Below the pieces are notes generated by a model that was not told where the DNA came from, ran no database searches, and saw only the letters and a list, made by a program, of their open reading frames with translations. A stretch of DNA of 10,316 nt from a virus. The translations under genes were made by a program, and so were the position numbers. The stretch lies in UHGV virus genome UHGV-0214301; one strand, given 5' to 3'. Positions within the stretch are counted from its first letter, which is position 1. Every line of letters starts with the position of its first letter. Positions 1-10,316 of the stretch are shown here, piece after piece.

Positions 1-1
1 T

Positions 2-967
2 ACCCAGACTATCCGCATGATTCTGGTTGTCACGAATACCGAAGCCATCACGCTGAAAATCGACCCGTCGGTGGTACTGGCGACCCGTAAATACGTGGAT
101 GATGAAGTCCTGGAATTAAGACTGTATGTGGATGACAAGATGAGAAACCACATTGCCGCACAGGATCCTCATATCCAGTATGCGCAGAAACATAATCCGA
201 CATTTACCGGAGAACCAAAAGCGCCGACGCCTGCCGCAGGAAATAACACCACGCGGATTGCGACCACTGAGTTTGTTCAGGCTGCTATTATCGCTCTGAT
301 TAACGGTGCGCCTGCCACGCTGGACACACTGAAAGAAATTGCCGCGGCCATTAACAATGACCCGAAATTCAGCACCACCATTAACAATGCGCTGTCAGGT
401 AAGCAGCCACTGGATGAGACGCTGACTCATTTGAGTGGAAAGGATGTTGCCGGTCTTCTCGCATACCTTGGTTTGGGAGAAGGCTCAGCATTACCTGTTG
501 GGGTGCCTGTTCCGTGGCCTTCAGCCACTCCGCCAACAGGCTGGCTGAAATGCAATGGTGCGGCTTTTTCTGCTGAAGAATACCCGGAACTGGCAAAGGC
601 TTACCCGACCAATAAATTGCCTGATTTACGAGGTGAATTTATTCGTGGCTGGGATGACGGGCGTGGTATTGATAATGGGCGAAGCCTTCTTACTGTTCAG
701 GGGTATGCAACAGAGGATCACGCTCATGGATTACCGTCAAGATCCACGATTGTGACTGATGCAACGATTAATTTTTATTTTGATGAAAGCTGGGTAAATA
801 GTGGCACAGACATTATCAAAAGAGGAAACACAAACGATGCCGGATTACCAGCACCGGATTATGGAACCTTTAAAACATATAAACAATCAGTGGCTGGTTT
901 AGGTGCCGCAGCCTCAGAAACGCGTCCGCGTAATATTGCATTTAACTATATCGTGAGGGCAGCCTGA
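2..967 (+). CDS. H: Tail fibre protein, C-terminal part (5' end lies upstream of the window); P2 gpH equivalent
   Basis: Open frame runs from the window edge (frame of position 2) to TGA at 965-967. The translation has a repeated ATTEFV-type fibre shaft motif and a C-terminal segment (PWPSATPPTGWL...GEFIRGWDDGRGID...HAHGLP) typical of Mu S/P1 S-type tail-collar fibre tips. The stop overlaps the start of the next gene as TGATG. Identification by recognition, not search. Confidence 0.88.
   Translation, partial: TQTIRMILVVTNTEAITLKIDPSVVLATRKYVDDEVLELRLYVDDKMRNHIAAQDPHIQYAQKHNPTFTGEPKAPTPAAGNNTTRIATTEFVQAAIIALINGAPATLDTLKEIAAAINNDPKFSTTINNALSGKQPLDETLTHLSGKDVAGLLAYLGLGEGSALPVGVPVPWPSATPPTGWLKCNGAAFSAEEYPELAKAYPTNKLPDLRGEFIRGWDDGRGIDNGRSLLTVQGYATEDHAHGLPSRSTIVTDATINFYFDESWVNSGTDIIKRGNTNDAGLPAPDYGTFKTYKQSVAGLGAAASETRPRNIAFNYIVRAA
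456..481. other. Candidate hix/gix-like 26-bp invertase crossover site, embedded in H at the constant/variable junction
   Basis: Sequence TTCTCGCATACC-TT-GGTTTGGGAGAA is an imperfect dyad: the left half and the reverse complement of the right half (TTCTCCCAAACC) agree at 9 of 12 positions. As I recall hixL (TTCTTGAAAACCAAGGTTTTTGATAA) it matches at about 19 of 26 positions, including the ACC-NN-GGTTT core. It encodes LLAYLGLGE, immediately before the collar-type variable tip. Confidence 0.4.
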
Positions 968-1569
968 TGCATAAAGCAATATTAAATAGTGAGTTTATTG
1001 CAACAAAGGCAGGGGATGTTACCGTTTATAACTACGATGGTGAAACACGGGAATATATTTCCACGTCAACTGAATATCTTGCTGTGGGTGTCGGTATTCC
1101 GGCATGTTCCTGTCTGGATGCACCTGGCATACATAAGGTTGGTTATGCAATCTGTCGTTCTGTGAATTTAAATTCATGGGAATATGTGCCAGACCATCGC
1201 GGTGAAATCGTCTATAGCACCGAAACAGGAGAATCGAAAGAAATCACAGCTCCGGGTGATTATCCTGAAAATACAACCACTATCGCCCCGTTAACGCCAT
1301 ACGATGAATGGAATGGTGAGAAATGGGTGACAGATACCGAGACACAGCATGGCGCAGCAGTAGATGCAGCAGAAGCACAGCGCCAGTCGCTGATTGATAC
1401 TGCAATGGCCTCCATCAATCTGATTCAACTGAAATTACAGGCCGGACGGAAGCTGACGCAGGCAGAAACAACCCGCCTTAACGCTGTGCTGGATTACATT
1501 GACGCGGTGACGGCAACAGATACCAGCACAGCGCCGGATGTCATCTGGCCTGAACTGCCGGAGGCGTAG
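967..1569 (+). CDS. G: Tail fibre assembly protein (Tfa/Mu U family; P2 gpG position)
   Basis: 200-aa ORF whose ATG overlaps the H stop (TGATG). The C-terminus (LNAVLDYIDAVTATDTSTAPDVIWPELPEA) carries the conserved Tfa signature ending APD-x-WP-x-x-P. It sits directly after the fibre gene. P2 gpG is 175 aa as I recall, so this is a different Tfa allele. Confidence 0.85.
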   Translation: MHKAILNSEFIATKAGDVTVYNYDGETREYISTSTEYLAVGVGIPACSCLDAPGIHKVGYAICRSVNLNSWEYVPDHRGEIVYSTETGESKEITAPGDYPENTTTIAPLTPYDEWNGEKWVTDTETQHGAAVDAAEAQRQSLIDTAMASINLIQLKLQAGRKLTQAETTRLNAVLDYIDAVTATDTSTAPDVIWPELPEA

Positions 1570-1669
1570 GCCATTCAATATCTGGCGCACCAGAAGTATC
1601 GACCAGCTCCAGTGCGTCCAGATAATCTAACCACAAATTGTATTGTTCTAAATCGCCACCTTTTAGCAG
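1541..1669 (-). pseudogene. Remnant of an oppositely oriented tail-fibre assembly gene (tfa', C-terminal ~40 codons only)
   Basis: The minus-strand frame translates to LLKGGDLEQYNLWLDYLDALELVDTSGAPDIEWPTPPAVQAR-stop. This aligns with the G C-terminus on the + strand (NAVLDYIDAVTATDTSTAPDVIWPELPEA). It is cut off upstream by an in-frame stop (+ strand 1670-1672) and overlaps the last ~29 nt of G head to head. Confidence 0.6.
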
Positions 1670-2137
1670 TCAACATCCGATCCTCTTTTGAAGGGAAAGG
1701 CATTAATCCATATGGGGTTCCTGAATTGTTAGCGCCAATTTCTTTCCGGATGCAGACTAAGAATTCACTCATATGCCATGCATTTTTTATAAACGACAAG
1801 CATTGCCCAAGAGTGCGTTAGATGATAGGTGGGAAGAAGTGACAGAAACAGCTAATATCATTGTTCAGCGTAGAGTTGGCAGTGGGCTATGCTCCATCAC
1901 TCAGTGTCCGATAGTATAGAGGCTTGCAGTCCAGTGCACAGATTAGTATGTGTCCGTTTTGTTTCATCCATGTATTGGGAACTGTATAGTTAAATAAAAA
2001 GTGTACAAATTACAATCGCCACTGTAATCATGTGAAAGAATAGATTAATATATCGCATCGGCAAACGTAAGGATGATGTTAAATCGCTTGTGGTTTCTAC
2101 TCACAAAATGATGTTTTATTAATTTTAGGGTTTTATT

Positions 2138-2162
2138 AAAAGGGGATGTAATATCCTTTTTT
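2138..2162 (+). terminator. Possible weak hairpin followed by a T-tract, ~48 bp upstream of the acyltransferase ATG
   Basis: AAAAGGGGAT-gtaat-ATCCTTTTTT: a short GGAT/ATCC stem extendable through G-U pairs, followed by T6. The stem is short and AT-rich, so function is uncertain. Confidence 0.2.
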
Positions 2163-2209
2163 ATAAATTTGATGTATGGTTTTTTGAACTTACACATAAA
2201 AGGTATAAC

Positions 2210-3364
2210 ATGCTGCCTAATCAATCAGTTTTACTTATCTGGATGTTTGTGTTGATGACCGCTATCATTGTTTTATTCTCCACGCAACAATTTAATTTCT
2301 TGGACAAGGATGTGAAATACCGAAATGAGCAGATAGATGGTCTCCGTTTTTTCTTATCAATATTTGTTGTGTTTCATCATTATGTGTTGTCTGAATCATA
2401 TTTTTTCGGCTCAGGATGGACATATGATGCAATCAAAGAGTATCCAGTTAACCAAGTTATTGGTAGATATGGGGTTTCCTTATTTTTCATGATCTCTGGA
2501 TTCTTGTTTTGCAATATTAAATCAAGCGCTAGAGATTGGTTTGTTTTTTATATAAAAAGATTCTTCAGGATAGCGCCTTTATTTACTTTATCATCTTGCG
2601 TTTGTATATCTTTAGCCTTTTTTTTATCACAAAATCCGTCAACATCAGACATATCACTAAAGAGCCTCGCCTATTGGTTTAATATGGGGTTGTCCATGAC
2701 TAAACCAGATATATTTAGTTTGCAAAACTCAAGTTTAATTAACGCTTCTGTAACTTGGACTTTGTACTGGGAATGGGGTTTTTATTTTTCACTGCCATTT
2801 GTATTATTTCTAAAATCAAAGTGGTGTGGGCTATCATTGTCTATCAGTATTATCTTTTTATGTGTTTTTATTTACGCAGATATTAATTCATTCAATGCAA
2901 CGCTCATTTCCTTCTTTTCTATAGGGTTTCTCTGCGCAGAGTTAACAAAAATAATTTCGCTATCTGTGCGAACTTGTAATGTGCTTATTGTTTTTGGGGG
3001 GGTGTTCTGCATTTTTATCGTGGATGATCCATATACAATCTTCAGTATTCCAGGTGTTGGTCTGATTTTTTTTGCTATATCAATGGGCGGAGATTTTTTT
3101 GGTTTATTAAAAATGAAAGGTGTTAGAAGACTTGGTGAAATAACATATAGTACTTATATGTTGCATGGAATTTTTCTCTATGTTCTAAATTTTTTTATTT
3201 CTCCTAATATAAGCAAACAGACATACATGTTGTTGTCGAGCTTTACTATCTTGCTTATTCTAATAATATCTTCATTTACATTTTATGTAATAGAAGCCCC
3301 ATTAAATAAATTAGGTTCTCAAATCGCCACTCGTATGCTTAAGACACATTTGAAGAGTCATTAA
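2210..3364 (+). CDS. Acyltransferase family 3 (OafA/Oac-like) integral membrane protein; probable surface-polysaccharide/LPS O-acyltransferase carried as cargo
   Basis: 384-aa ORF, hydrophobic throughout with multiple predicted membrane-spanning segments. It carries the AT3 hallmarks as I recognise them: an N-terminal R-x-IDGLR-x(10)-H motif (RNEQIDGLRFFLSIFVVFHH), GVSLFFMISGFLF, and a C-terminal ITYSTYMLH plus FYVIEAPLNKLG. About 30% GC on counted lines, sharply lower than the flanking tail genes. No fused SGNH domain. Start codon not certain (an internal Met lies at residue 17). Confidence 0.85.
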   Translation: MLPNQSVLLIWMFVLMTAIIVLFSTQQFNFLDKDVKYRNEQIDGLRFFLSIFVVFHHYVLSESYFFGSGWTYDAIKEYPVNQVIGRYGVSLFFMISGFLFCNIKSSARDWFVFYIKRFFRIAPLFTLSSCVCISLAFFLSQNPSTSDISLKSLAYWFNMGLSMTKPDIFSLQNSSLINASVTWTLYWEWGFYFSLPFVLFLKSKWCGLSLSISIIFLCVFIYADINSFNATLISFFSIGFLCAELTKIISLSVRTCNVLIVFGGVFCIFIVDDPYTIFSIPGVGLIFFAISMGGDFFGLLKMKGVRRLGEITYSTYMLHGIFLYVLNFFISPNISKQTYMLLSSFTILLILIISSFTFYVIEAPLNKLGSQIATRMLKTHLKSH

Positions 3365-3384
3365 ACATAGATAATGTTATTTTT

Positions 3385-3414
3385 GCTCTGAAGCGGTTTT
3401 TATTACTTCAGAGC
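3385..3414. terminator. Perfect 9-bp inverted repeat hairpin just after the acyltransferase stop; possible terminator or transcript-stabilising element
   Basis: GCTCTGAAG-cggtttttatta-CTTCAGAGC, 20 bp past the stop at 3362-3364. A T-run precedes the stem and another lies in the loop, but no U-tract follows on either strand, so it is not a canonical intrinsic terminator. Confidence 0.25.
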
Positions 3415-3466
3415 AATACGGATTCCGACAGGTCGGGGTTAAAAAACTGCGCATAACATTATCTGA

Positions 3467-3700
3467 GGGTGCCATTCTGGTTCTCTGGAAGCAACCAGAG
3501 CTAAAGATCGTATTGGTGGCAGACGTCCGAAACTCACCGCGAGTGAGTGGGAGCAGGCCGGACGGTTGCTGGCTGCGGGGGAGTCACGTCAACGTGTGGC
3601 GCTGATTTTTGATATTGGCCTGTCACCGCTCTATAAAAAATTCCCCTCATCAGCGACAAAGAATAAATTGTGTCATCCCTTAGCCAACCGGGACAAATAG
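3467..3700 (+). pseudogene. 3'-terminal remnant of a serine DNA invertase gene (Gin/Hin/Pin/Cin family), C-terminal HTH domain only
   Basis: The frame translates to ...LEATRAKDRIGGRRPKLTASEWEQAGRLLAAGESRQRVALIFDIGLSPLYKKFP..., matching the conserved C-terminal DNA-binding end of Gin/Pin-type invertases (GRIGGR-P-KLT...EWEQAGRLLA-G..R..VA-I.....S.LYK.FP). The frame is closed by TGA at 3464-3466 and there is no catalytic N-terminal domain or start codon upstream. Confidence 0.7.
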
Positions 3701-3740
3701 CCTGACATCTCCGGCACAACTGAAAATACCACTCACCCAT
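3668..3740 (+). promoter_or_regulatory. Putative Ogr-dependent late promoter for the FI operon (PF)
   Basis: Position is immediately upstream of FI. A partial dyad TTGT-N21-ACAA (3668-3696) is centred about 55 bp upstream of a plausible start near 3737. It does not match the TGT-N12-ACA consensus I recall for P2/P4 late promoters, so this is a low-confidence call. Confidence 0.3.
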
Positions 3741-3759
3741 TAACCACGGAGTTAAACGG

Positions 3760-4950
3760 ATGAGTGACTATCATCACGGCGTGCAGGTGCTGGAGATTAA
3801 CGACGGCACCCGCGTCATTTCCACCGTATCCACCGCCATTGTTGGCATGGTCTGCACGGCCAGCGATGCGGATGCGGAAACCTTCCCCCTCAATAAACCT
3901 GTGCTGATTACCAATGTGCAGAGCGCAATTGCAAAGGCCGGTAAAAAAGGCACGCTGGCGGCATCGTTGCAGGCCATCGCTGACCAGTCAAAACCGGTCA
4001 CCGTTGTCGTGCGCGTGGAAGACGGCACCGGTGATGACGAGGAAACGAAACTCGCGCAGACCGTTTCCAATATCATCGGCACCACCGACGAAAACGGTCA
4101 GTACACCGGACTGAAAGCCCTGCTGGCGGCGGAGTCGGTAACCGGTGTTAAACCGCGTATTCTCGGTGTGCCGGGACTGGACACCAAAGAGGTGGCTGTT
4201 GCACTGGCATCAGTCTGTCAGAAGCTGCGCGCTTTCGGGTATATCAGCGCATGGGGCTGTAAGACCATTTCCGAGGTGAAAGCCTACCGCCAGAATTTCA
4301 GCCAGCGTGAGCTGATGGTCATCTGGCCGGATTTCCTCGCATGGGATACGGTCACCAGTACCACCGCCACCGCGTATGCCACCGCCCGTGCGCTGGGTCT
4401 GCGCGCTAAAATCGACCAGGAGCAGGGCTGGCATAAAACGCTGTCCAACGTCGGGGTGAACGGTGTTACCGGCATCAGCGCATCCGTCTTCTGGGATTTG
4501 CAGGAGTCCGGCACCGATGCTGACCTGCTTAACGAGTCAGGCGTCACTACGCTGATTCGCCGCGACGGTTTCCGATTCTGGGGTAACCGTACCTGCTCTG
4601 ATGACCCGCTGTTCCTCTTTGAAAACTATACCCGCACCGCGCAGGTGCTGGCCGACACGATGGCTGAGGCGCACATGTGGGCGGTGGACAAGCCCATCAC
4701 CGCAACGCTGATTCGCGACATCGTTGACGGCATCAATGCCAAATTCCGTGAGCTGAAAACAAACGGCTATATCGTGGATGCGACCTGCTGGTTCAGCGAA
4801 GAATCCAACGATGCGGAAACCCTCAAGGCCGGAAAACTGTATATCGACTACGACTATACACCGGTGCCTCCTCTTGAAAACCTGACCCTGCGCCAGCGTA
4901 TTACCGATAAATACCTGGCAAATCTGGTCACCTCGGTTAACAGCAATTAA
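3760..4950 (+). CDS. FI: Contractile tail sheath protein
   Basis: 396-aa ORF, the same length as P2 gpFI as I recall, first gene of the FI-FII-E-T-U-D order. GGAG Shine-Dalgarno about 9 nt upstream. High-GC codon usage like the neighbouring tail genes. Confidence 0.93.
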   Translation: MSDYHHGVQVLEINDGTRVISTVSTAIVGMVCTASDADAETFPLNKPVLITNVQSAIAKAGKKGTLAASLQAIADQSKPVTVVVRVEDGTGDDEETKLAQTVSNIIGTTDENGQYTGLKALLAAESVTGVKPRILGVPGLDTKEVAVALASVCQKLRAFGYISAWGCKTISEVKAYRQNFSQRELMVIWPDFLAWDTVTSTTATAYATARALGLRAKIDQEQGWHKTLSNVGVNGVTGISASVFWDLQESGTDADLLNESGVTTLIRRDGFRFWGNRTCSDDPLFLFENYTRTAQVLADTMAEAHMWAVDKPITATLIRDIVDGINAKFRELKTNGYIVDATCWFSEESNDAETLKAGKLYIDYDYTPVPPLENLTLRQRITDKYLANLVTSVNSN

Positions 4951-4962
4951 GGAGCCTGACCG

Positions 4963-5481
4963 ATGGCAATGCCGCGCAAACTCAAGTTAATGAACGTCTT
5001 TCTGAACGGCTACAGCTATCAGGGCGTCGCGAAGTCCGTCACGCTGCCAAAACTGACCCGTAAGCTCGAAAACTATCGCGGTGCGGGGATGAACGGCAGC
5101 GCACCGGTAGACCTCGGCCTTGATGACGATGCGCTGTCAATGGAGTGGTCGCTCGGGGGCTTCCCGGATTCGGTTATCTGGGAGCTTTACGCCGCAACCG
5201 GTGTGGATGCTGTGCCGATTCGTTTTGCAGGCTCTTACCAGCGTGACGATACCGGCGAAACGGTGGCCGTCGAAGTGGTCATGCGTGGACGTCAGAAAGA
5301 AATCGACACCGGCGAGGGTAAACAGGGAGAAGACACTGAGTCGAAAATCTCCGTGGTCTGCACCTATTTCCGGCTGACGATGGACGGTAAGGAGCTGGTC
5401 GAAATCGACACCATCAACATGATTGAGAAGGTGAACGGCGTCGACCGGCTGGAGCAACACCGCCGCAATATCGGCCTGTGA
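4963..5481 (+). CDS. FII: Tail tube protein
   Basis: 172-aa ORF, the length of P2 gpFII, 12 nt after the FI stop, preceded by AAGGAG. Confidence 0.93.
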   Translation: MAMPRKLKLMNVFLNGYSYQGVAKSVTLPKLTRKLENYRGAGMNGSAPVDLGLDDDALSMEWSLGGFPDSVIWELYAATGVDAVPIRFAGSYQRDDTGETVAVEVVMRGRQKEIDTGEGKQGEDTESKISVVCTYFRLTMDGKELVEIDTINMIEKVNGVDRLEQHRRNIGL

Positions 5482-5537
5482 TTTTCATCCGGTCAGCCAG
5501 GCTGACCGGTTAACCCTGATTCAGAAGTGAGAAAACC

Positions 5538-5813
5538 ATGAACAAAGAAAATGTGATTACCCTGGACAATCCGGTCAAGCGTGGTGAGCAGGTCATCGAA
5601 CAGGTCACGCTGATGAAACCCAGTGCCGGGACGCTGCGCGGTGTCAGTCTGGCTGCGGTCGCAAACTCCGAAGTTGATGCACTAATTAAGGTGTTGCCGC
5701 GCATGACGGCACCGATGCTGACCGAGCAGGAAGTTGCCGCACTGGAACTGCCTGACCTTGTGGCGCTGGCCGGTAAGGTGGTCGGTTTTTTGTCGCCGAA
5801 CTCGGTGCAGTAA
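5538..5813 (+). CDS. E: Tail assembly chaperone E (zero-frame product)
   Basis: 91-aa ORF between the tube and tape-measure genes, the length of P2 gpE. It contains the slippery heptamer near its 3' end. Confidence 0.88.
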   Translation: MNKENVITLDNPVKRGEQVIEQVTLMKPSAGTLRGVSLAAVANSEVDALIKVLPRMTAPMLTEQEVAALELPDLVALAGKVVGFLSPNSVQ

Positions 5814-5965
5814 CGTTCCCGAAAAATCTCTCGGTCGATGACCTGATGGCGGATGTGGCAGTGATATTTCACTGGCCGCCATCAGAACTGTATCCCATGA
5901 GCCTGACCGAACTCATCACATGGCGCGAAAAGGCGCTCCGGCGAAGCGGAAACACGAATGAGTAA
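5538..5965 (+). CDS. E+E': Tail assembly chaperone E+E' (-1 frameshift fusion; 85 aa zero frame + 57 aa in -1 frame)
   Basis: Slipping at 5786-5792 and continuing in the -1 frame gives ...GFLVAELGAVTFPKNLSVDDLMADVAVIFHWPPSELYPMSLTELITWREKALRRSGNTNE-stop. The total is 142 aa, equal to P2 E+E' as I recall, and the end overlaps the T start at 5958, as in the P2 and lambda G/GT arrangement. Confidence 0.75.
5786..5792 (+). other. Programmed -1 ribosomal frameshift slippery heptamer T TTT TTG
   Basis: The zero-frame codons are TTT (5787-5789) and TTG (5790-5792), fitting the X XXY YYZ pattern. The -1 frame is open from here to TAA at 5963-5965. Confidence 0.75.
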
Positions 5966-8405
5966 CAATGTAAAATTACAGGTATTGCTCAGGGCTGTTG
6001 ACCAGGCATCCCGCCCGTTTAAATCCATCCGCACAGCGAGCAAATCGCTGTCGGGGGATATCCGGGAAACACAAAAATCACTGCGAGAGCTGAACGGTCA
6101 GGCATCCCGTATTGAGGGATTTCGCAAGACAAGTGCACAGCTCGCCGTGACTGGTCATGCACTTGAAAAGGCTCGGCAGGAAGCCGAAGCCCTTACCACA
6201 CAGTTTAAAAACACCGAACGTCCGACCCGTGCTCAGGCGAAAGTGCTGGAGTCCGCGAAGCGTGCGGCGGAGGACTTACAGGCGAAATATAACCGCCTGA
6301 CGGATTCCGTTAAACGCCAGCAGCGGGAACTGGCCGTTGTGGGAATTAATACCCGCAATCTTGCACGTGATGAGCAGGGACTGAAAAACCGTATCAGTGA
6401 AACCACCGCACAGCTTAACCGTCAGCGTGACGCGCTGGCGCGTGTCAGTGCGCAACAGGCAAAACTTAACGCAGTAAAACAGCGTTATCAGGCAGGCAAG
6501 GAACTGGCCGGAAATATGGCCTCAGTGGGCGCTGCCGGTGTGGGGATTGCGGCGGCGGGAACGATGGCCGGAGTTAAGTTGCTGACGCCCGGTTATGAGT
6601 TTGCGCAGAAAAACTCAGAATTGCAGGCCGTGCTCGGTGTGGCAAAAGATTCCGCCGAAATGGCCGCGCTCCGCAAGCAGGCGCGCCAGCTCGGCGATAA
6701 TACCGCCGCCTCGGCGGATGATGCAGCCGGTGCGCAGATTATCATTGCGAAAGCGGGTGGAGATGTTGATGCCATTCAGGCGGCAACGCCGGTCACGCTG
6801 AATATGGCGCTGGCGAACCGTCGCACGATGGAAGAAAACGCCGCCCTGCTGATGGGGATGAAATCCGCCTTTCAGCTTTCAAACGATAAGGTCGCTCATA
6901 TCGGGGATGTTCTCTCCATGACGATGAACAAAACCGCCGCCGATTTTGACGGCATGAGCGATGCGCTGACCTATGCCGCACCTGTGGCAAAAAATGCCGG
7001 TGTCAGCATTGAAGAAACCGCCGCAATGGTCGGGGCGCTGCATGATGCAAAAATCACAGGCTCAATGGCGGGAACGGGAAGCCGTGCCGTGTTAAGCCGC
7101 CTGCAGGCACCGACGGGAAAAGCATGGGATGCACTCAAAGAGCTTGGTGTGAAAACCTCAGACAGTAAGGGAAACACCCGACCAGTATTTACCATTCTGA
7201 AAGAAATGCAGGCCAGCTTTGAGAAAAACCGGCTCGGTACTGCCCAGCAGGCTGAATACATGAAAACCATTTTCGGGGAGGAGGCCAGTTCAGCCGCCGC
7301 CGTGCTGATGACTGCCGCCTCAACCGGAAAGCTGGACAAACTGACCGCTGCGTTTAAAGCCTCAGACGGAAAGACCGCAGAGCTGGTAAATATCATGCAG
7401 GACAACCTCGGCGGTGACTTTAAGGAGTTTCAGTCCGCTTATGAGGCGGTGGGGACTGACCTGTTTGACCAGCAGGAAGGCGCACTGCGTAAGCTCACGC
7501 AGACGGCCACAAAGTATGTGTTAAAACTCGACGGCTGGATCCAGAAAAACAAATCACTGGCGTCAACCATCGGCCTTATTGTCGGTGGTGCACTGGCGCT
7601 TACTGGCATCATCGGTGCAATTGGTCTTGTAGCCTGGCCGGTTATCACCGGCATTAATGCCATCATCGCGGCAGCAGGCGCAATGGGGGCAATCTTCACG
7701 ACGGTTGGCAGTGCTGTTATGACGGCCATCGGGGCGATTAGCTGGCCGATTGTGGCTGTGGTGGCCGCCATTGTCGCCGGGGCGTTGCTTATCCGTAAAT
7801 ACTGGGAGCCTGTCAGCGCATTCTTTGGCGGTGTGGTTGAAGGGCTGAAAGCGGCATTTGCGCCAGTGGGGGAACTGTTCACGCCACTTAAGCCGGTGTT
7901 TGACTGGCTGGGTGAAAAGTTACAGGCCGCGTGGCAGTGGTTTAAAAACCTGATTGCCCCGGTCAAAGCTACCCAGGACACCCTGAACCGTTGCCGTGAC
8001 ACGGGCGTCATGTTCGGGCAGGCACTGGCTGACGCGCTGATGCTGCCGCTTAATGCGTTCAACAAACTGCGCAGTGGTATTGACTGGGTACTGGAAAAAC
8101 TCGGTGTTATCAACAAAGAGTCAGACACACTTGACCAGACCGCCGCCAGAACTCAAGCCGCCACGTATGGCAGCGGTGGTTATATTCCGGCGACCAGCTC
8201 TTATGCAGGTTATCAGGCTTATCAGCCGGTCACGGCACCGGCTGGCCGCTCTTATGTGGACCAGAGTAAAAACGAATATCACATCAGCCTGACGGGTGGT
8301 ACTGCACCGGGGACACAGCTTGACCGCCAGTTACAGGATGCGCTCGAAAAATACGAGCGGGATAAACGTGCGCGCGCCCGTGCCAGCATGATGCATGACG
8401 GTTAA
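5958..8405 (+). CDS. T: Tail tape measure protein
   Basis: 815-aa ORF, the length of P2 gpT. The N-terminal region is rich in Q/R/A/L (coiled-coil-like), and there is a long Gly/Ala/Ile-rich hydrophobic segment (LASTIGLIVGGALALTGIIGAIGLVAWPVITG...), typical of tape measure proteins. Position follows E/E'. Confidence 0.93.
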   Translation: MSNNVKLQVLLRAVDQASRPFKSIRTASKSLSGDIRETQKSLRELNGQASRIEGFRKTSAQLAVTGHALEKARQEAEALTTQFKNTERPTRAQAKVLESAKRAAEDLQAKYNRLTDSVKRQQRELAVVGINTRNLARDEQGLKNRISETTAQLNRQRDALARVSAQQAKLNAVKQRYQAGKELAGNMASVGAAGVGIAAAGTMAGVKLLTPGYEFAQKNSELQAVLGVAKDSAEMAALRKQARQLGDNTAASADDAAGAQIIIAKAGGDVDAIQAATPVTLNMALANRRTMEENAALLMGMKSAFQLSNDKVAHIGDVLSMTMNKTAADFDGMSDALTYAAPVAKNAGVSIEETAAMVGALHDAKITGSMAGTGSRAVLSRLQAPTGKAWDALKELGVKTSDSKGNTRPVFTILKEMQASFEKNRLGTAQQAEYMKTIFGEEASSAAAVLMTAASTGKLDKLTAAFKASDGKTAELVNIMQDNLGGDFKEFQSAYEAVGTDLFDQQEGALRKLTQTATKYVLKLDGWIQKNKSLASTIGLIVGGALALTGIIGAIGLVAWPVITGINAIIAAAGAMGAIFTTVGSAVMTAIGAISWPIVAVVAAIVAGALLIRKYWEPVSAFFGGVVEGLKAAFAPVGELFTPLKPVFDWLGEKLQAAWQWFKNLIAPVKATQDTLNRCRDTGVMFGQALADALMLPLNAFNKLRSGIDWVLEKLGVINKESDTLDQTAARTQAATYGSGGYIPATSSYAGYQAYQPVTAPAGRSYVDQSKNEYHISLTGGTAPGTQLDRQLQDALEKYERDKRARARASMMHDG

Positions 8406-8419
8406 GGAGGTGACGAAAA

Positions 8420-8899
8420 ATGATGCTCGCGTTAGGTATGTTTGTTTTTATGCGCCAGACGCTGCCACACCAGACCATGCAGCGTGAATCAGATTATCGC
8501 TGGCCGTCAAATTCCCGTATCGGTAAACGGGATGCCTACCAGTTTCTCGGCGTTGGTGAGGAAAACATGACGCTTGCCGGTGTGCTTTATCCCGAACTGA
8601 CCGGCGGCAAGCTGACGATGACCACGCTCAGACTGATGGCAGAGGAAGGCCGGGCGTGGCCGTTGCTGGATGGCACAGGCATGATTTACGGCATGTATGT
8701 CATCAGCAGGGTGAGTGAAACAGGGAGTATTTTCTTTGCAGACGGCACACCCCGGAAAATTGATTTTACGCTGTCACTCACCCGCGTGGATGAATCACTG
8801 GCCGCGCTTTATGGCGATATCGGTAAACAGGCAGAATCGCTCATCGGTAAGGCTGGCAGTATGGCGACTAAATTCACGGGGATGACGGGGGCGGAATAA
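8420..8899 (+). CDS. U: Tail protein U (tail tube terminator/baseplate-proximal protein)
   Basis: 159-aa ORF, the length of P2 gpU, with a strong AAGGAGG Shine-Dalgarno at 8404-8410. The stop overlaps the D start as TAATG. Confidence 0.88.
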   Translation: MMLALGMFVFMRQTLPHQTMQRESDYRWPSNSRIGKRDAYQFLGVGEENMTLAGVLYPELTGGKLTMTTLRLMAEEGRAWPLLDGTGMIYGMYVISRVSETGSIFFADGTPRKIDFTLSLTRVDESLAALYGDIGKQAESLIGKAGSMATKFTGMTGAE

Positions 8900-10062
8900 T
8901 GCTGGATGCGCTGACATTTGATGCAGGCAGTACGCTGACGCCGGATTACATGCTGATGCTCGACAGCAGGGATATTACCGGCAATATCAGCGACCGTCTG
9001 ATGAGCATGACCCTGACGGATAACCGGGGCTTTGAGGCTGACCAGCTTGATATTGAACTGAACGATGCCGACGGGCAGGTCGGGCTGCCGGTTCGTGGCG
9101 CTGTCCTGACGGTGTATATCGGCTGGAAAGGTTTTGCCCTGGTATGCAAAGGGAAATTTACCGTTGATGAGGTTGAACACCGGGGCGCGCCGGATGTGGT
9201 TACCATCCGCGCCCGGAGTGCAGATTTTCGCGGGACGCTCAATTCCCGCCGGGAAGGCTCCTGGCATGACACCACGCTCGGTGCGATTGTTGAGGTGATA
9301 GCCTCCCGTAACAGGCTGGAAGCCAGTGTCGCGCCGTCACTGGCCGGAATTAAAATCCCGCACATCGACCAGTCGCAGGAGTCCGATGCGAAATTCCTGA
9401 CCCGTCTTGCTGAACGCAACGGCGGTGAGGTGTCGGTAAAAATGGGAAAATTGTTGTTTCTCAAAGCGGGGCAGGGGGTGACGGCCAGTGGTAAAAAAAT
9501 CCCGCAGGTCACCATAACCCGCAGCGACGGCGACCGCCATCATTTTGCGATTGCTGACCGTGGAGCCTATACCGGCGTAACGGCAAAGTGGTTACACACC
9601 AAAGACCCGAAGCCACAAAAGCAGAAGGTAAAACTGAAACGCAAAAAGAAAGAGAAACACCTGCGCGCACTGGAGCACCCGAAAGCGAAACCGGTCACGC
9701 AGAAGAAAGCGCCAAAAGTACCGGAAGCGCGCGAAGGTGAATACATGGCAGGTGAGGCTGACAACGTTTTTGCCCTGACCACGGTATATGCCACGAAAGC
9801 GCAGGCCATGCGCGCCGCTCAGGCGAAGTGGGATAAGCTGCAACGGGGCGTTGCGGAGTTCTCCATCAGTCTGGCTACTGGTCGGGCAGATATTTACACG
9901 GAAACGCCGGTCAGAGTATCAGGCTTTAAGCGCGTCATAGACGAGCAGGACTGGACAATCACTAAGGTGACACATTTTCTGAATAATAGCGGCTTCACGA
10001 CGTCCCTGGAGCTTGAGGTCAGGCTTTCTGATGTGGAGTACGAAACAGAAGATGATGAGTGA
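8899..10062 (+). CDS. D: Tail protein D (late gene D, tail/baseplate hub family)
   Basis: 387-aa ORF, the length of P2 gpD, translationally coupled to U and last gene before ogr. Contains a lysine-rich basic segment (KDPKPQKQKVKLKRKKKEKHLRALEHPKAKPVTQKKAPK). Confidence 0.88.
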   Translation: MLDALTFDAGSTLTPDYMLMLDSRDITGNISDRLMSMTLTDNRGFEADQLDIELNDADGQVGLPVRGAVLTVYIGWKGFALVCKGKFTVDEVEHRGAPDVVTIRARSADFRGTLNSRREGSWHDTTLGAIVEVIASRNRLEASVAPSLAGIKIPHIDQSQESDAKFLTRLAERNGGEVSVKMGKLLFLKAGQGVTASGKKIPQVTITRSDGDRHHFAIADRGAYTGVTAKWLHTKDPKPQKQKVKLKRKKKEKHLRALEHPKAKPVTQKKAPKVPEAREGEYMAGEADNVFALTTVYATKAQAMRAAQAKWDKLQRGVAEFSISLATGRADIYTETPVRVSGFKRVIDEQDWTITKVTHFLNNSGFTTSLELEVRLSDVEYETEDDE

Positions 10063-10080
10063 TGTTTTTATTTTATCTGT

Positions 10081-10109
10081 TTGTTTTATAAGGATAAATT
10101 AACTAAAAT
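10081..10109 (+). promoter_or_regulatory. Putative sigma-70 promoter of ogr
   Basis: TTGTTT (10081-10086), a 17-bp spacer, then TAAAAT (10104-10109). The predicted transcript start is about 27 nt upstream of the ATG at 10144, which has an AGGTG Shine-Dalgarno 7 nt upstream. Confidence 0.4.
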
Positions 10110-10143
10110 GGCACCATCAACAAAACCGGAAGAGGTGCTCGCG

Positions 10144-10316
10144 ATGTTTCATTGTCCTTTATGCCAGCATGCCGCACATGCGCGTACAAGTCGCTATATC
10201 ACTGACACGACAAAAGAGCGTTATCACCAGTGTCAGAACGTGAATTGCAGCGCCACGTTCATCACTTATGAGTCGGTACAGCGATACATCGTGAAGCCGG
10301 GAGAAGTCCACGCCGT
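10144..10316 (+). CDS. ogr: Late transcription activator Ogr (Cys4 zinc finger), 3' end beyond the window
   Basis: Translation MFHCPLCQHAAHARTSRYITDTTKERYHQCQNVNCSATFITYESVQRYIVKPGEVHA... matches P2 Ogr as I remember it, including the CPLC...CQNVNC zinc-binding cysteines. An in-frame ATG at 10108 would add 12 residues but lies inside the predicted -10 element, so 10144 is preferred. Confidence 0.9.
   Translation, partial: MFHCPLCQHAAHARTSRYITDTTKERYHQCQNVNCSATFITYESVQRYIVKPGEVHA

Follow-up and report, generated by a model that had tools for sequence, protein, structure and literature searches.

Remains of a Gin/Pin-family DNA invertase upstream of the tail sheath gene in a P2-like Escherichia coli prophage

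The interval between the tail fibre assembly gene G and the tail sheath gene FI is the documented Z/fun hotspot of P2-like phages, in which invertases are often seen together with varied cargo (10.1101/2024.10.15.618418). The stretch analysed here, 10,316 nucleotides of the virus genome UHGV-0214301 and hereafter called the window, carries late genes of a P2-like (Peduovirus) E. coli prophage. The gene order in the window is the 3' part of the fibre gene H, the assembly gene tfa (the equivalent of P2 G), a 1.8-kb interval with one AT-rich gene, FI, the tube gene FII, E/E', the tape measure gene, U and D. An open frame at 3467-3700, directly upstream of FI, reads like the end of a DNA invertase. 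What is this frame, and is the tail fibre of this prophage still under the control of an invertible switch? The frame is very probably a pseudogene of a Gin/Pin-family serine DNA invertase, without function, and a remnant of the fibre switch of this prophage. The case is ordinary, one more example of a familiar kind of feature in a variable hotspot that is itself well known, and its importance beyond correct annotation is small: the frame should be annotated as an invertase pseudogene and the fibre of the prophage as locked in one orientation.

Identity and composite structure of the remnant

The frame at 3467-3700 translates into GCHSGSLEATRAKDRIGGRRPKLTASEWEQAGRLLAAGESRQRVALIFDIGLSPLYKKFPSSATKNKLCHPLANRDK followed by a stop codon, the same peptide that had been quoted in an earlier note, which read the letters alone and proposed a Gin/Hin/Pin-type C-terminal DNA-binding domain. 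Profiles, structures and alignments agree on this assignment. The frame matches the resolvase helix-turn-helix family HTH_7 of Pfam (PF02796) over profile positions 1-44/45 with a score of 43.7 bits (E 3.1e-11; the gathering cut-off is 23.8 bits), PHROG 125 'DNA invertase' (E 1.4e-15), the solved structure of the Mu Gin invertase (3uj3, residues 126-182, E 5e-18) and that of Hin (1hcr, E 1.5e-8). The similarity also survives alignment by tblastn with an intact neighbour invertase as query, which places residues 127-197 at 3485-3697 with 67/71 identities (E 3e-40). At 3485-3700 the window is 96-98% identical in nucleotides and 94% identical in amino acids to the intact invertase genes of P2-like prophages. 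The nucleotide alignment is colinear at the orthologous position and runs on into FI, and together with the disabling lesions described below, it gives the pattern of a pseudogene.

The C-terminal relic proper occupies 3485-3700 on the plus strand and covers residues 127-197, namely the end of helix E, the linker, the HTH_7 DNA-binding domain and the tail, and it ends with a TAG stop codon at 3698-3700. The frame is open from 3467 onward (77 codons) and is preceded by TGA at 3464-3466; the homology begins only at 3485. As had been claimed, there is no start codon: an in-frame ATG is absent, and the sole listed open reading frame is a TTG-initiated one of 44 codons at 3566-3700.

Small serine invertases have their nucleophilic serine near residue 9-10 of a resolvase-type catalytic domain, and a Fis-dependent enhancer lies in the 5' part of the invertase gene. 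Pfam found no resolvase catalytic domain (PF00239) with this serine and detected HTH_7 alone. Gin of Mu, Cin of P1, Pin of e14 and Hin of Salmonella have a homologous C-terminal DNA-binding domain (the relic matches PDB 3uj3, 4m6f and 1hcr, and is 67% identical to Gin over 55 residues), but the relic has neither the catalytic domain with its nucleophilic serine nor the 5' gene segment, and a second crossover site is missing. Among the attributes of a functional invertase, the window retains HTH_7 but not the catalytic domain, a complete open reading frame with a start codon or two inverted sites.

The earlier note had further stated that no catalytic domain is present. This is right within 3467-3700 but not for the neighbouring DNA, in which a decayed 25-codon piece of the catalytic domain lies out of frame and contains a stop codon. 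This second invertase fragment upstream of the relic is one of three new points of the present analysis, beside the occurrence of the joint in a cargo-less prophage and the overlap with the PF promoter. It covers 75 nt at 3418-3492 on the plus strand and corresponds to gene nucleotides ~112-187 (codons ~38-62), although its left limit is uncertain and possibly extends as far as ~3392. It is 79-83% identical to intact invertase genes by blastn, and tblastn resolves it into SNTDSDRSGLK and GVKKLRITLSEGAILVLWK, which are read in two different frames and have a stop codon and a frameshift between them.

The fragment and the relic meet at the octamer CTGGAAGC (3485-3492, plus strand), which was located by pairwise alignment to an intact gene (locus L002) and by overlapping ends of blastn matches; the sequence across the joint is CTGGTTCTCTGGAAGCAACCAGAGC. 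In the intact gene, the octamer occurs twice as a direct repeat, at nucleotides 180-187 and 379-386, and the 199 bp between the copies (codons ~63-126) are missing from the window. From the alignment, this loss is best read as an out-of-register deletion between the two direct repeats. In addition, the first ~110 nt of the gene (~37 codons), including the codon for the catalytic serine, are absent from the window. Because the gene has both a 5' scrap and a 199-bp deletion, it was hit by at least two lesions and not by one truncation. The 5' scrap is also far more diverged from intact genes than the 3' part (16/76 versus 10/216 differences, Fisher p = 6e-5), so that the two pieces probably do not have one simple common history.

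The former fibre switch and the cargo gene

In relatives, the intact arrangement is H, tfa, an inverted second assembly gene (tfa'), an inverted alternative fibre end, a right 26-bp crossover site, a 197-aa invertase gene, 59 bp and FI, and the right site lies ~55 bp upstream of the invertase ATG. An intact 197-aa invertase (Resolvase + HTH_7) followed by 59 bp and then by FI is found at loci L002, L023, L024, L025, L028, L030, L034 and L035, and carriers of the full switch include E. coli O157:H7 493/89, ZF34, phage S164 and Salmonella phage MET_P1_103_31. An ancestor with a complete invertible fibre switch had been proposed, with a full-length invertase at this locus in related prophages as a check; the proposal holds, as relatives carrying the full set at the same place have flanks 96-98% identical to those of the window.

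What is left of the switch on the fibre side agrees with this ancestry. A gix/pix-like 26-bp crossover site, TTCTCGCATACCTTGGTTTGGGAGAA, is located at 456-481 (not assigned to a strand), within H at the boundary between its constant and variable parts, and is the sole survivor in the window. The degenerate 26-mer pattern with at most three mismatches finds this one site in the window and none in 200 shuffles, which substantiates the gix-like site of the earlier note. The same 26 bp form the left site of the switches at L002, L032 and L035, each of which has a right site too, and their palindromic half-site layout is that of gix/pix/hix sites. No second site was found in the 10.3-kb window by the same pattern or by an inverted-repeat search. 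An inverted match between 434-449 and 1671-1686 (16 nt, 81%) was considered as a second site and rejected; it lies inside the tfa' relic and no gix core precedes it.

The tfa gene itself is intact (967-1569, plus strand; Pfam Caudo_TAP, E 6e-32). The remnant of tfa' that had been suspected beside it is real: its C-terminal 41 codons and stop codon are found by tblastn at 1541-1666 on the minus strand, where 1544-1666 matches residues 107-147 of the tfa' products of L001 and L002 with 90-93% amino acid identity. A diverged, out-of-register piece of tfa' (approximately residues 38-76) follows at 1667-1780 on the minus strand; it is 79% identical to the tfa' genes of e14-like elements by blastn, was placed by pairwise alignment, and is divided from the C-terminal piece by an internal deletion of ~90 nt. 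A trace of the alternative fibre end is absent from the window. Because the recombinase is gone and only one crossover site is left, the tail fibre of this prophage is predicted to be fixed in one orientation.

A complete AT-rich gene lies between the tfa' relic and the invertase relic, as had been described. This cargo gene (2210-3364, plus strand) encodes a 384-aa membrane acyltransferase of the Acyl_transf_3 family (PF01757, E 1e-26; PHROG 3333 'O-acetyltransferase', E 8e-51), under the database name 'acyltransferase family protein [Escherichia coli]'. Such source names, together with the genes that flank the prophage in matching assemblies, identify E. coli as the host. NCBIfam gave a family match for neither the cargo nor the relic. 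The G+C content of the cargo gene is 0.28-0.37 (~30%), compared with 0.5-0.6 in its flanks. With its PF01757 domain, low G+C and position at a recognised moron site, it has the attributes of a phage-borne Acyl_transf_3 moron and is, by analogy with Oac-type phage genes, probably a surface-glycan O-acetylase of lysogenic conversion. The locus would then be an example of turnover at the Z/fun hotspot in which a phase-variable host-range switch was replaced by a lysogenic-conversion gene. The nearest homologues of the cargo in GTDB representative genomes and IMG/VR, at 36-45% amino acid identity, are from Pseudescherichia, Ewingella and IMG/VR contigs, and none in these collections has P2-like or invertase neighbours. 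The cargo is absent from 5,426 complete RefSeq E. coli genomes and from PLSDB plasmids.

The neaT gene of E. coli CFT073 (phi-b0847) occupies the same interval, termed 'moron position 2' of P2-like phages (PMC3573123). It is also an AT-rich PF01757 acyltransferase gene between the fibre-assembly gene and FI. However, NeaT was rejected as a close relative of the cargo: it is a distant homologue (27% identity over 190 residues) encoded on the opposite strand of a different backbone, with no invertase remnant beside it. Loci L026, L027, L031 and L033, which have an identical sheath protein, carry differing genes between G and FI that encode unannotated proteins of 259-461 aa, with one weak HNH_2 match and one faint DUF3800 match among them; they illustrate the breadth of cargo at this hotspot.

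The AT-rich segment of ~430 nt between the tfa' relic and the cargo start (1781-2209) is the presumed home of the cargo promoter; searches of E. coli, plasmid and phage collections gave no homologue of it, and it shows no convincing sigma-70 consensus. Rfam gave no family at E <= 1 over 1500-3800. A strongly folding stretch lies directly after the cargo stop codon, at 3366-3467 on the plus strand, with a 13-bp outer stem around two hairpins and a perfect 12-nt inverted repeat (3369-3380 and 3453-3464). Its predicted RNA fold reaches -46.5 kcal/mol (z = -4.6), and none of 200 shuffles is as stable. All copies of the stretch are identical, hence covariation gives no signal. The 3' half of the structure is made from the 5' fragment of the invertase gene. 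Because it has no U-tract, it is not a canonical terminator, and the modelled fold may serve as a transcript 3' end or as a stability element instead.

In the preferred account, a P2-like E. coli prophage would have had an ancestral invertase that inverted its distal tail-fibre and assembly genes. The first ~37 codons of the invertase gene with the catalytic serine, the right 26-bp site, the alternative fibre end and most of tfa' would then have been lost, and the AT-rich acyltransferase cargo would have taken over the place of the lost right half of the switch. A deletion between the CTGGAAGC copies would further have removed 199 bp inside the invertase gene, leaving the 75-nt catalytic-domain scrap and the complete DNA-binding end as a relic without a role of its own.

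It is possible, though rather doubtful, that the cassette at 1667-3484, consisting of the diverged tfa' piece, the cargo and the diverged 5' piece of the invertase gene, was formed in a more distant phage and then imported by out-of-register recombination inside tfa' and, at CTGGAAGC, inside the invertase gene; the function of the relic would be the same as in the preferred account. The backbone-proximal pieces are conserved (~90% for tfa' at 1544-1666 and 96-98% for the invertase at 3485-3700) and the cargo-proximal pieces are ~79% identical, and each junction, in tfa' and in the invertase gene, has an internal deletion, all of which would follow from such an import. However, no donor was found that has a matching intact invertase or carries the cargo within a switch, and the 3' part alone could just as well have been renewed later by homologous recombination from the FI side.

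A sister relic in E. coli 2018-05-5CC (NZ_AP027886.1, locus L012) also argues against import. It has the same out-of-register joint, from invertase nucleotide ~185 to ~380, at the same position upstream of FI, but neither the cargo nor the tfa' relic. Because the joint is present in this cargo-less strain, the deletion need not be tied to the arrival of the cargo. The 2018-05-5CC relic differs from that of the window in that it begins further 5' (at approximately gene nucleotide 66) and its 5' fragment is only 69% identical to that of the window. Except for this related joint, the exact joint is absent from 5,426 complete RefSeq E. coli genomes, PLSDB and IMG/VR. The order of deletion, cargo arrival and recombination may therefore differ from that of the preferred account, and the two invertase pieces may have different histories.

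An unlikely extension is that the tfa' and invertase relics serve as homology arms for the cassette in a recurrent conversion from switch to cargo, and that 3366-3467 was co-opted as the 3' end of the cargo transcript, which would insulate the PF promoter from read-through in the lysogen. If this were true, the acyltransferase cassette could recombine through these arms into any related P2-like phage and take the place of its intact fibre switch.

Overlap with the PF promoter and constraint on the frame

The late promoter PF drives the genes from FI (3760-4950, plus strand; Pfam Phage_sheath_1, Phage_sheath_1C and Gp18_domIII_N) through D. In P2 (NC_001895), a misc_feature at 17555-17583 is annotated as 'activator binding site; activation of pF promoter', and the 'transcription start site for F operon' is at 17626-17628. 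Mapped to the window, these give a predicted binding site for the activator Ogr at 3663-3691 and a PF transcription start at 3734-3736, both on the plus strand. The mapped features are at a constant distance from the FI ATG in P2 and in the window, so that by sequence equivalence the window has the elements of PF with the same spacing to the FI start codon. The last 13 codons of the invertase frame contain the whole predicted activator site, and predictions of the PF promoter should allow for its position in a former invertase frame. From 3680 onward, the identity of the window to P2 is 97.7%; within the PF region itself, the two are identical from 3680 except for one base, and TTGTG is retained at 3668-3672.

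The earlier note had supposed that the remnant runs into the PF region and that promoter sequence may be partly derived from the invertase. The overlap is confirmed, but the direction is probably the reverse. In P2, 9W and cargo-bearing relatives with the same FI protein, all of which lack the invertase, the common sequence starts at 3668 or 3680, and none is shared upstream. Since the sequence from 3668 is present in P2 and 9W too, the invertase frame reads through promoter DNA in its non-conserved tail; this C-terminal tail, SSATKNKLCHPLANRDK, has no counterpart in Gin or Hin. The last ~11 codons of the invertase frame (3668-3700) are accordingly placed, by comparison with invertase-less P2, within the predicted Ogr-activated PF promoter, and the frame probably reads into pre-existing promoter DNA. 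The intact invertase WP_000905108.1 of P2-like E. coli prophages (O157:H7 493/89 and ZF34) is at the same position directly upstream of PF and FI and has the same tail and the same overlap of its stop-proximal codons with the activator site. It is 94% identical to the relic in amino acids and 96-98% in nucleotides over residues 127-197, but has all 197 codons, an ATG, the right site and the full invertible segment of tfa' and alternative fibre end, all of which the window lacks.

In P2 (~1450-1482 of locus L011) and 9W (~1462-1495 of L021), a G+C-rich hairpin followed by TTTTCTTT directly precedes the PF activator site. This element resembles a terminator that would protect PF against transcription from upstream, and it is absent where an invertase or a relic fills the position.

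Relics always keep the 3' end of the invertase gene because this end overlaps PF, and its last ~35 bases are indispensable, as they double as the part of the promoter that is predicted to bind Ogr. We infer that only this promoter-overlapping 3' end of the relic is under constraint, and we take the ~250 bases upstream of the overlap to be debris that has not yet been deleted.

Selection might instead have kept the helix-turn-helix end as a small DNA-binding protein, expressed alone from TTG 3566 or by read-through from the cargo and acting at the gix site or on PF. Such a protein is very unlikely. The 77-codon open frame, a GGAG 12 nt upstream of TTG 3566 and a cargo gene that is encoded on the same strand and not separated from the relic by a canonical terminator would allow it; between the cargo and FI there are weak hairpins in the HTH coding region only, in numbers barely above those of shuffles. 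However, ATG is absent, and a start at TTG 3566 would leave out helix 1 and the minor-groove arm. In addition, relatives that carry a cargo and the same FI allele have no invertase sequence at all.

The substitutions point in the same direction. Six are specific to the relic when it is compared with four intact alleles, and three of them alter amino acids (A130T, G134D and T174P). G134 and T174 are common to Gin and the intact alleles, and T174P places a proline in the S-T-L-Y stretch of the HTH recognition helix; both changes speak against a working peptide. Tandem double substitutions account for two of the relic-specific changes, GG to AA at 3493-3494 and CA to AC at 3625-3626. The substitutions are few, and they agree better with recent inactivation than with selection for a DNA-binding peptide. 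Taken together, the differences from one intact allele give a synonymous to non-synonymous ratio of 6:4; this excess and the open 77-codon frame would allow some constraint on the HTH part, but the counts are tiny and fit recent inactivation as well. In addition, the 2018-05-5CC relic has further deletions of 11, 7 and 1 bp, some of which break the frame in the HTH region, and PGAP annotates its 5' part (AABK14_RS23700) as a frameshifted, incomplete recombinase pseudogene. These deletions and the pseudogene flag indicate that the relic frame is not conserved.

Recurrent decay of the invertase at the locus

Other alleles at the locus have been inactivated independently by internal deletions as well. 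Loci L029 and L032 encode a dead 60-aa in-frame invertase product, which has a ~400-bp deletion between CTGATTTTTGA copies. In phage KC618326 of E. coli O157:H43 T22 (L001, 3136-3630), the protein of 165 aa annotated as 'phage DNA invertase' comes from a frameshift allele, in which a 4-bp deletion beside CTGGAAG shifts the frame at approximately codon 129 and removes the DNA-binding domain. Because the joint of the window occurs without the cargo in 2018-05-5CC and other internal-deletion alleles exist, invertase decay at the G-FI locus appears to be recurrent and to proceed via the internal repeats of the gene itself. The locus would in this respect exemplify hotspot turnover in which deletions between short direct repeats inside the invertase gene inactivate it again and again.

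Loci L029 and L032 (GCA_049200765.1 and GCA_976942565.1; 3483-4703) are also exact inversion isomers of a 1.2-kb fibre segment with 99.8% identity. Their half-sites are exchanged at the central dinucleotide of the 26-bp sites, and the same dead 60-aa invertase is present in both. Either a trans-acting invertase has worked at the locus, or the same deletion has arisen twice. Because both orientations occur with a dead invertase, action in trans is plausible at the locus in general. For the window, it is hardly credible that a host invertase, such as Pin of e14 or that of another prophage, still inverts the fibre switch: the 10.3 kb contain one crossover site, the alternative fibre end is gone, and the same single orientation is seen in eight assemblies.

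That the gene is truly intact and its truncation a sequencing or assembly artefact, a reading for which the open 77-codon frame is the one point in favour, is next to impossible, as eight independent NCBI E. coli assemblies agree with the window in every base of 1-3888, the gene has lost ~110 nt at its 5' end and 199 nt inside it and is not just frameshifted, and the upstream space is filled by a complete unrelated gene; the stretch is a relic and not an intact gene behind a sequencing error.

From 3889 to 10316, the identity to the same eight assemblies falls to ~97%. Because this drop is abrupt, it marks a homologous-recombination breakpoint in FI, ~130 nt into the gene, and not in the relic. 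The block of fibre, cargo, relic and PF is common to two backbones, which shows that it moves between backbones via homologous recombination.
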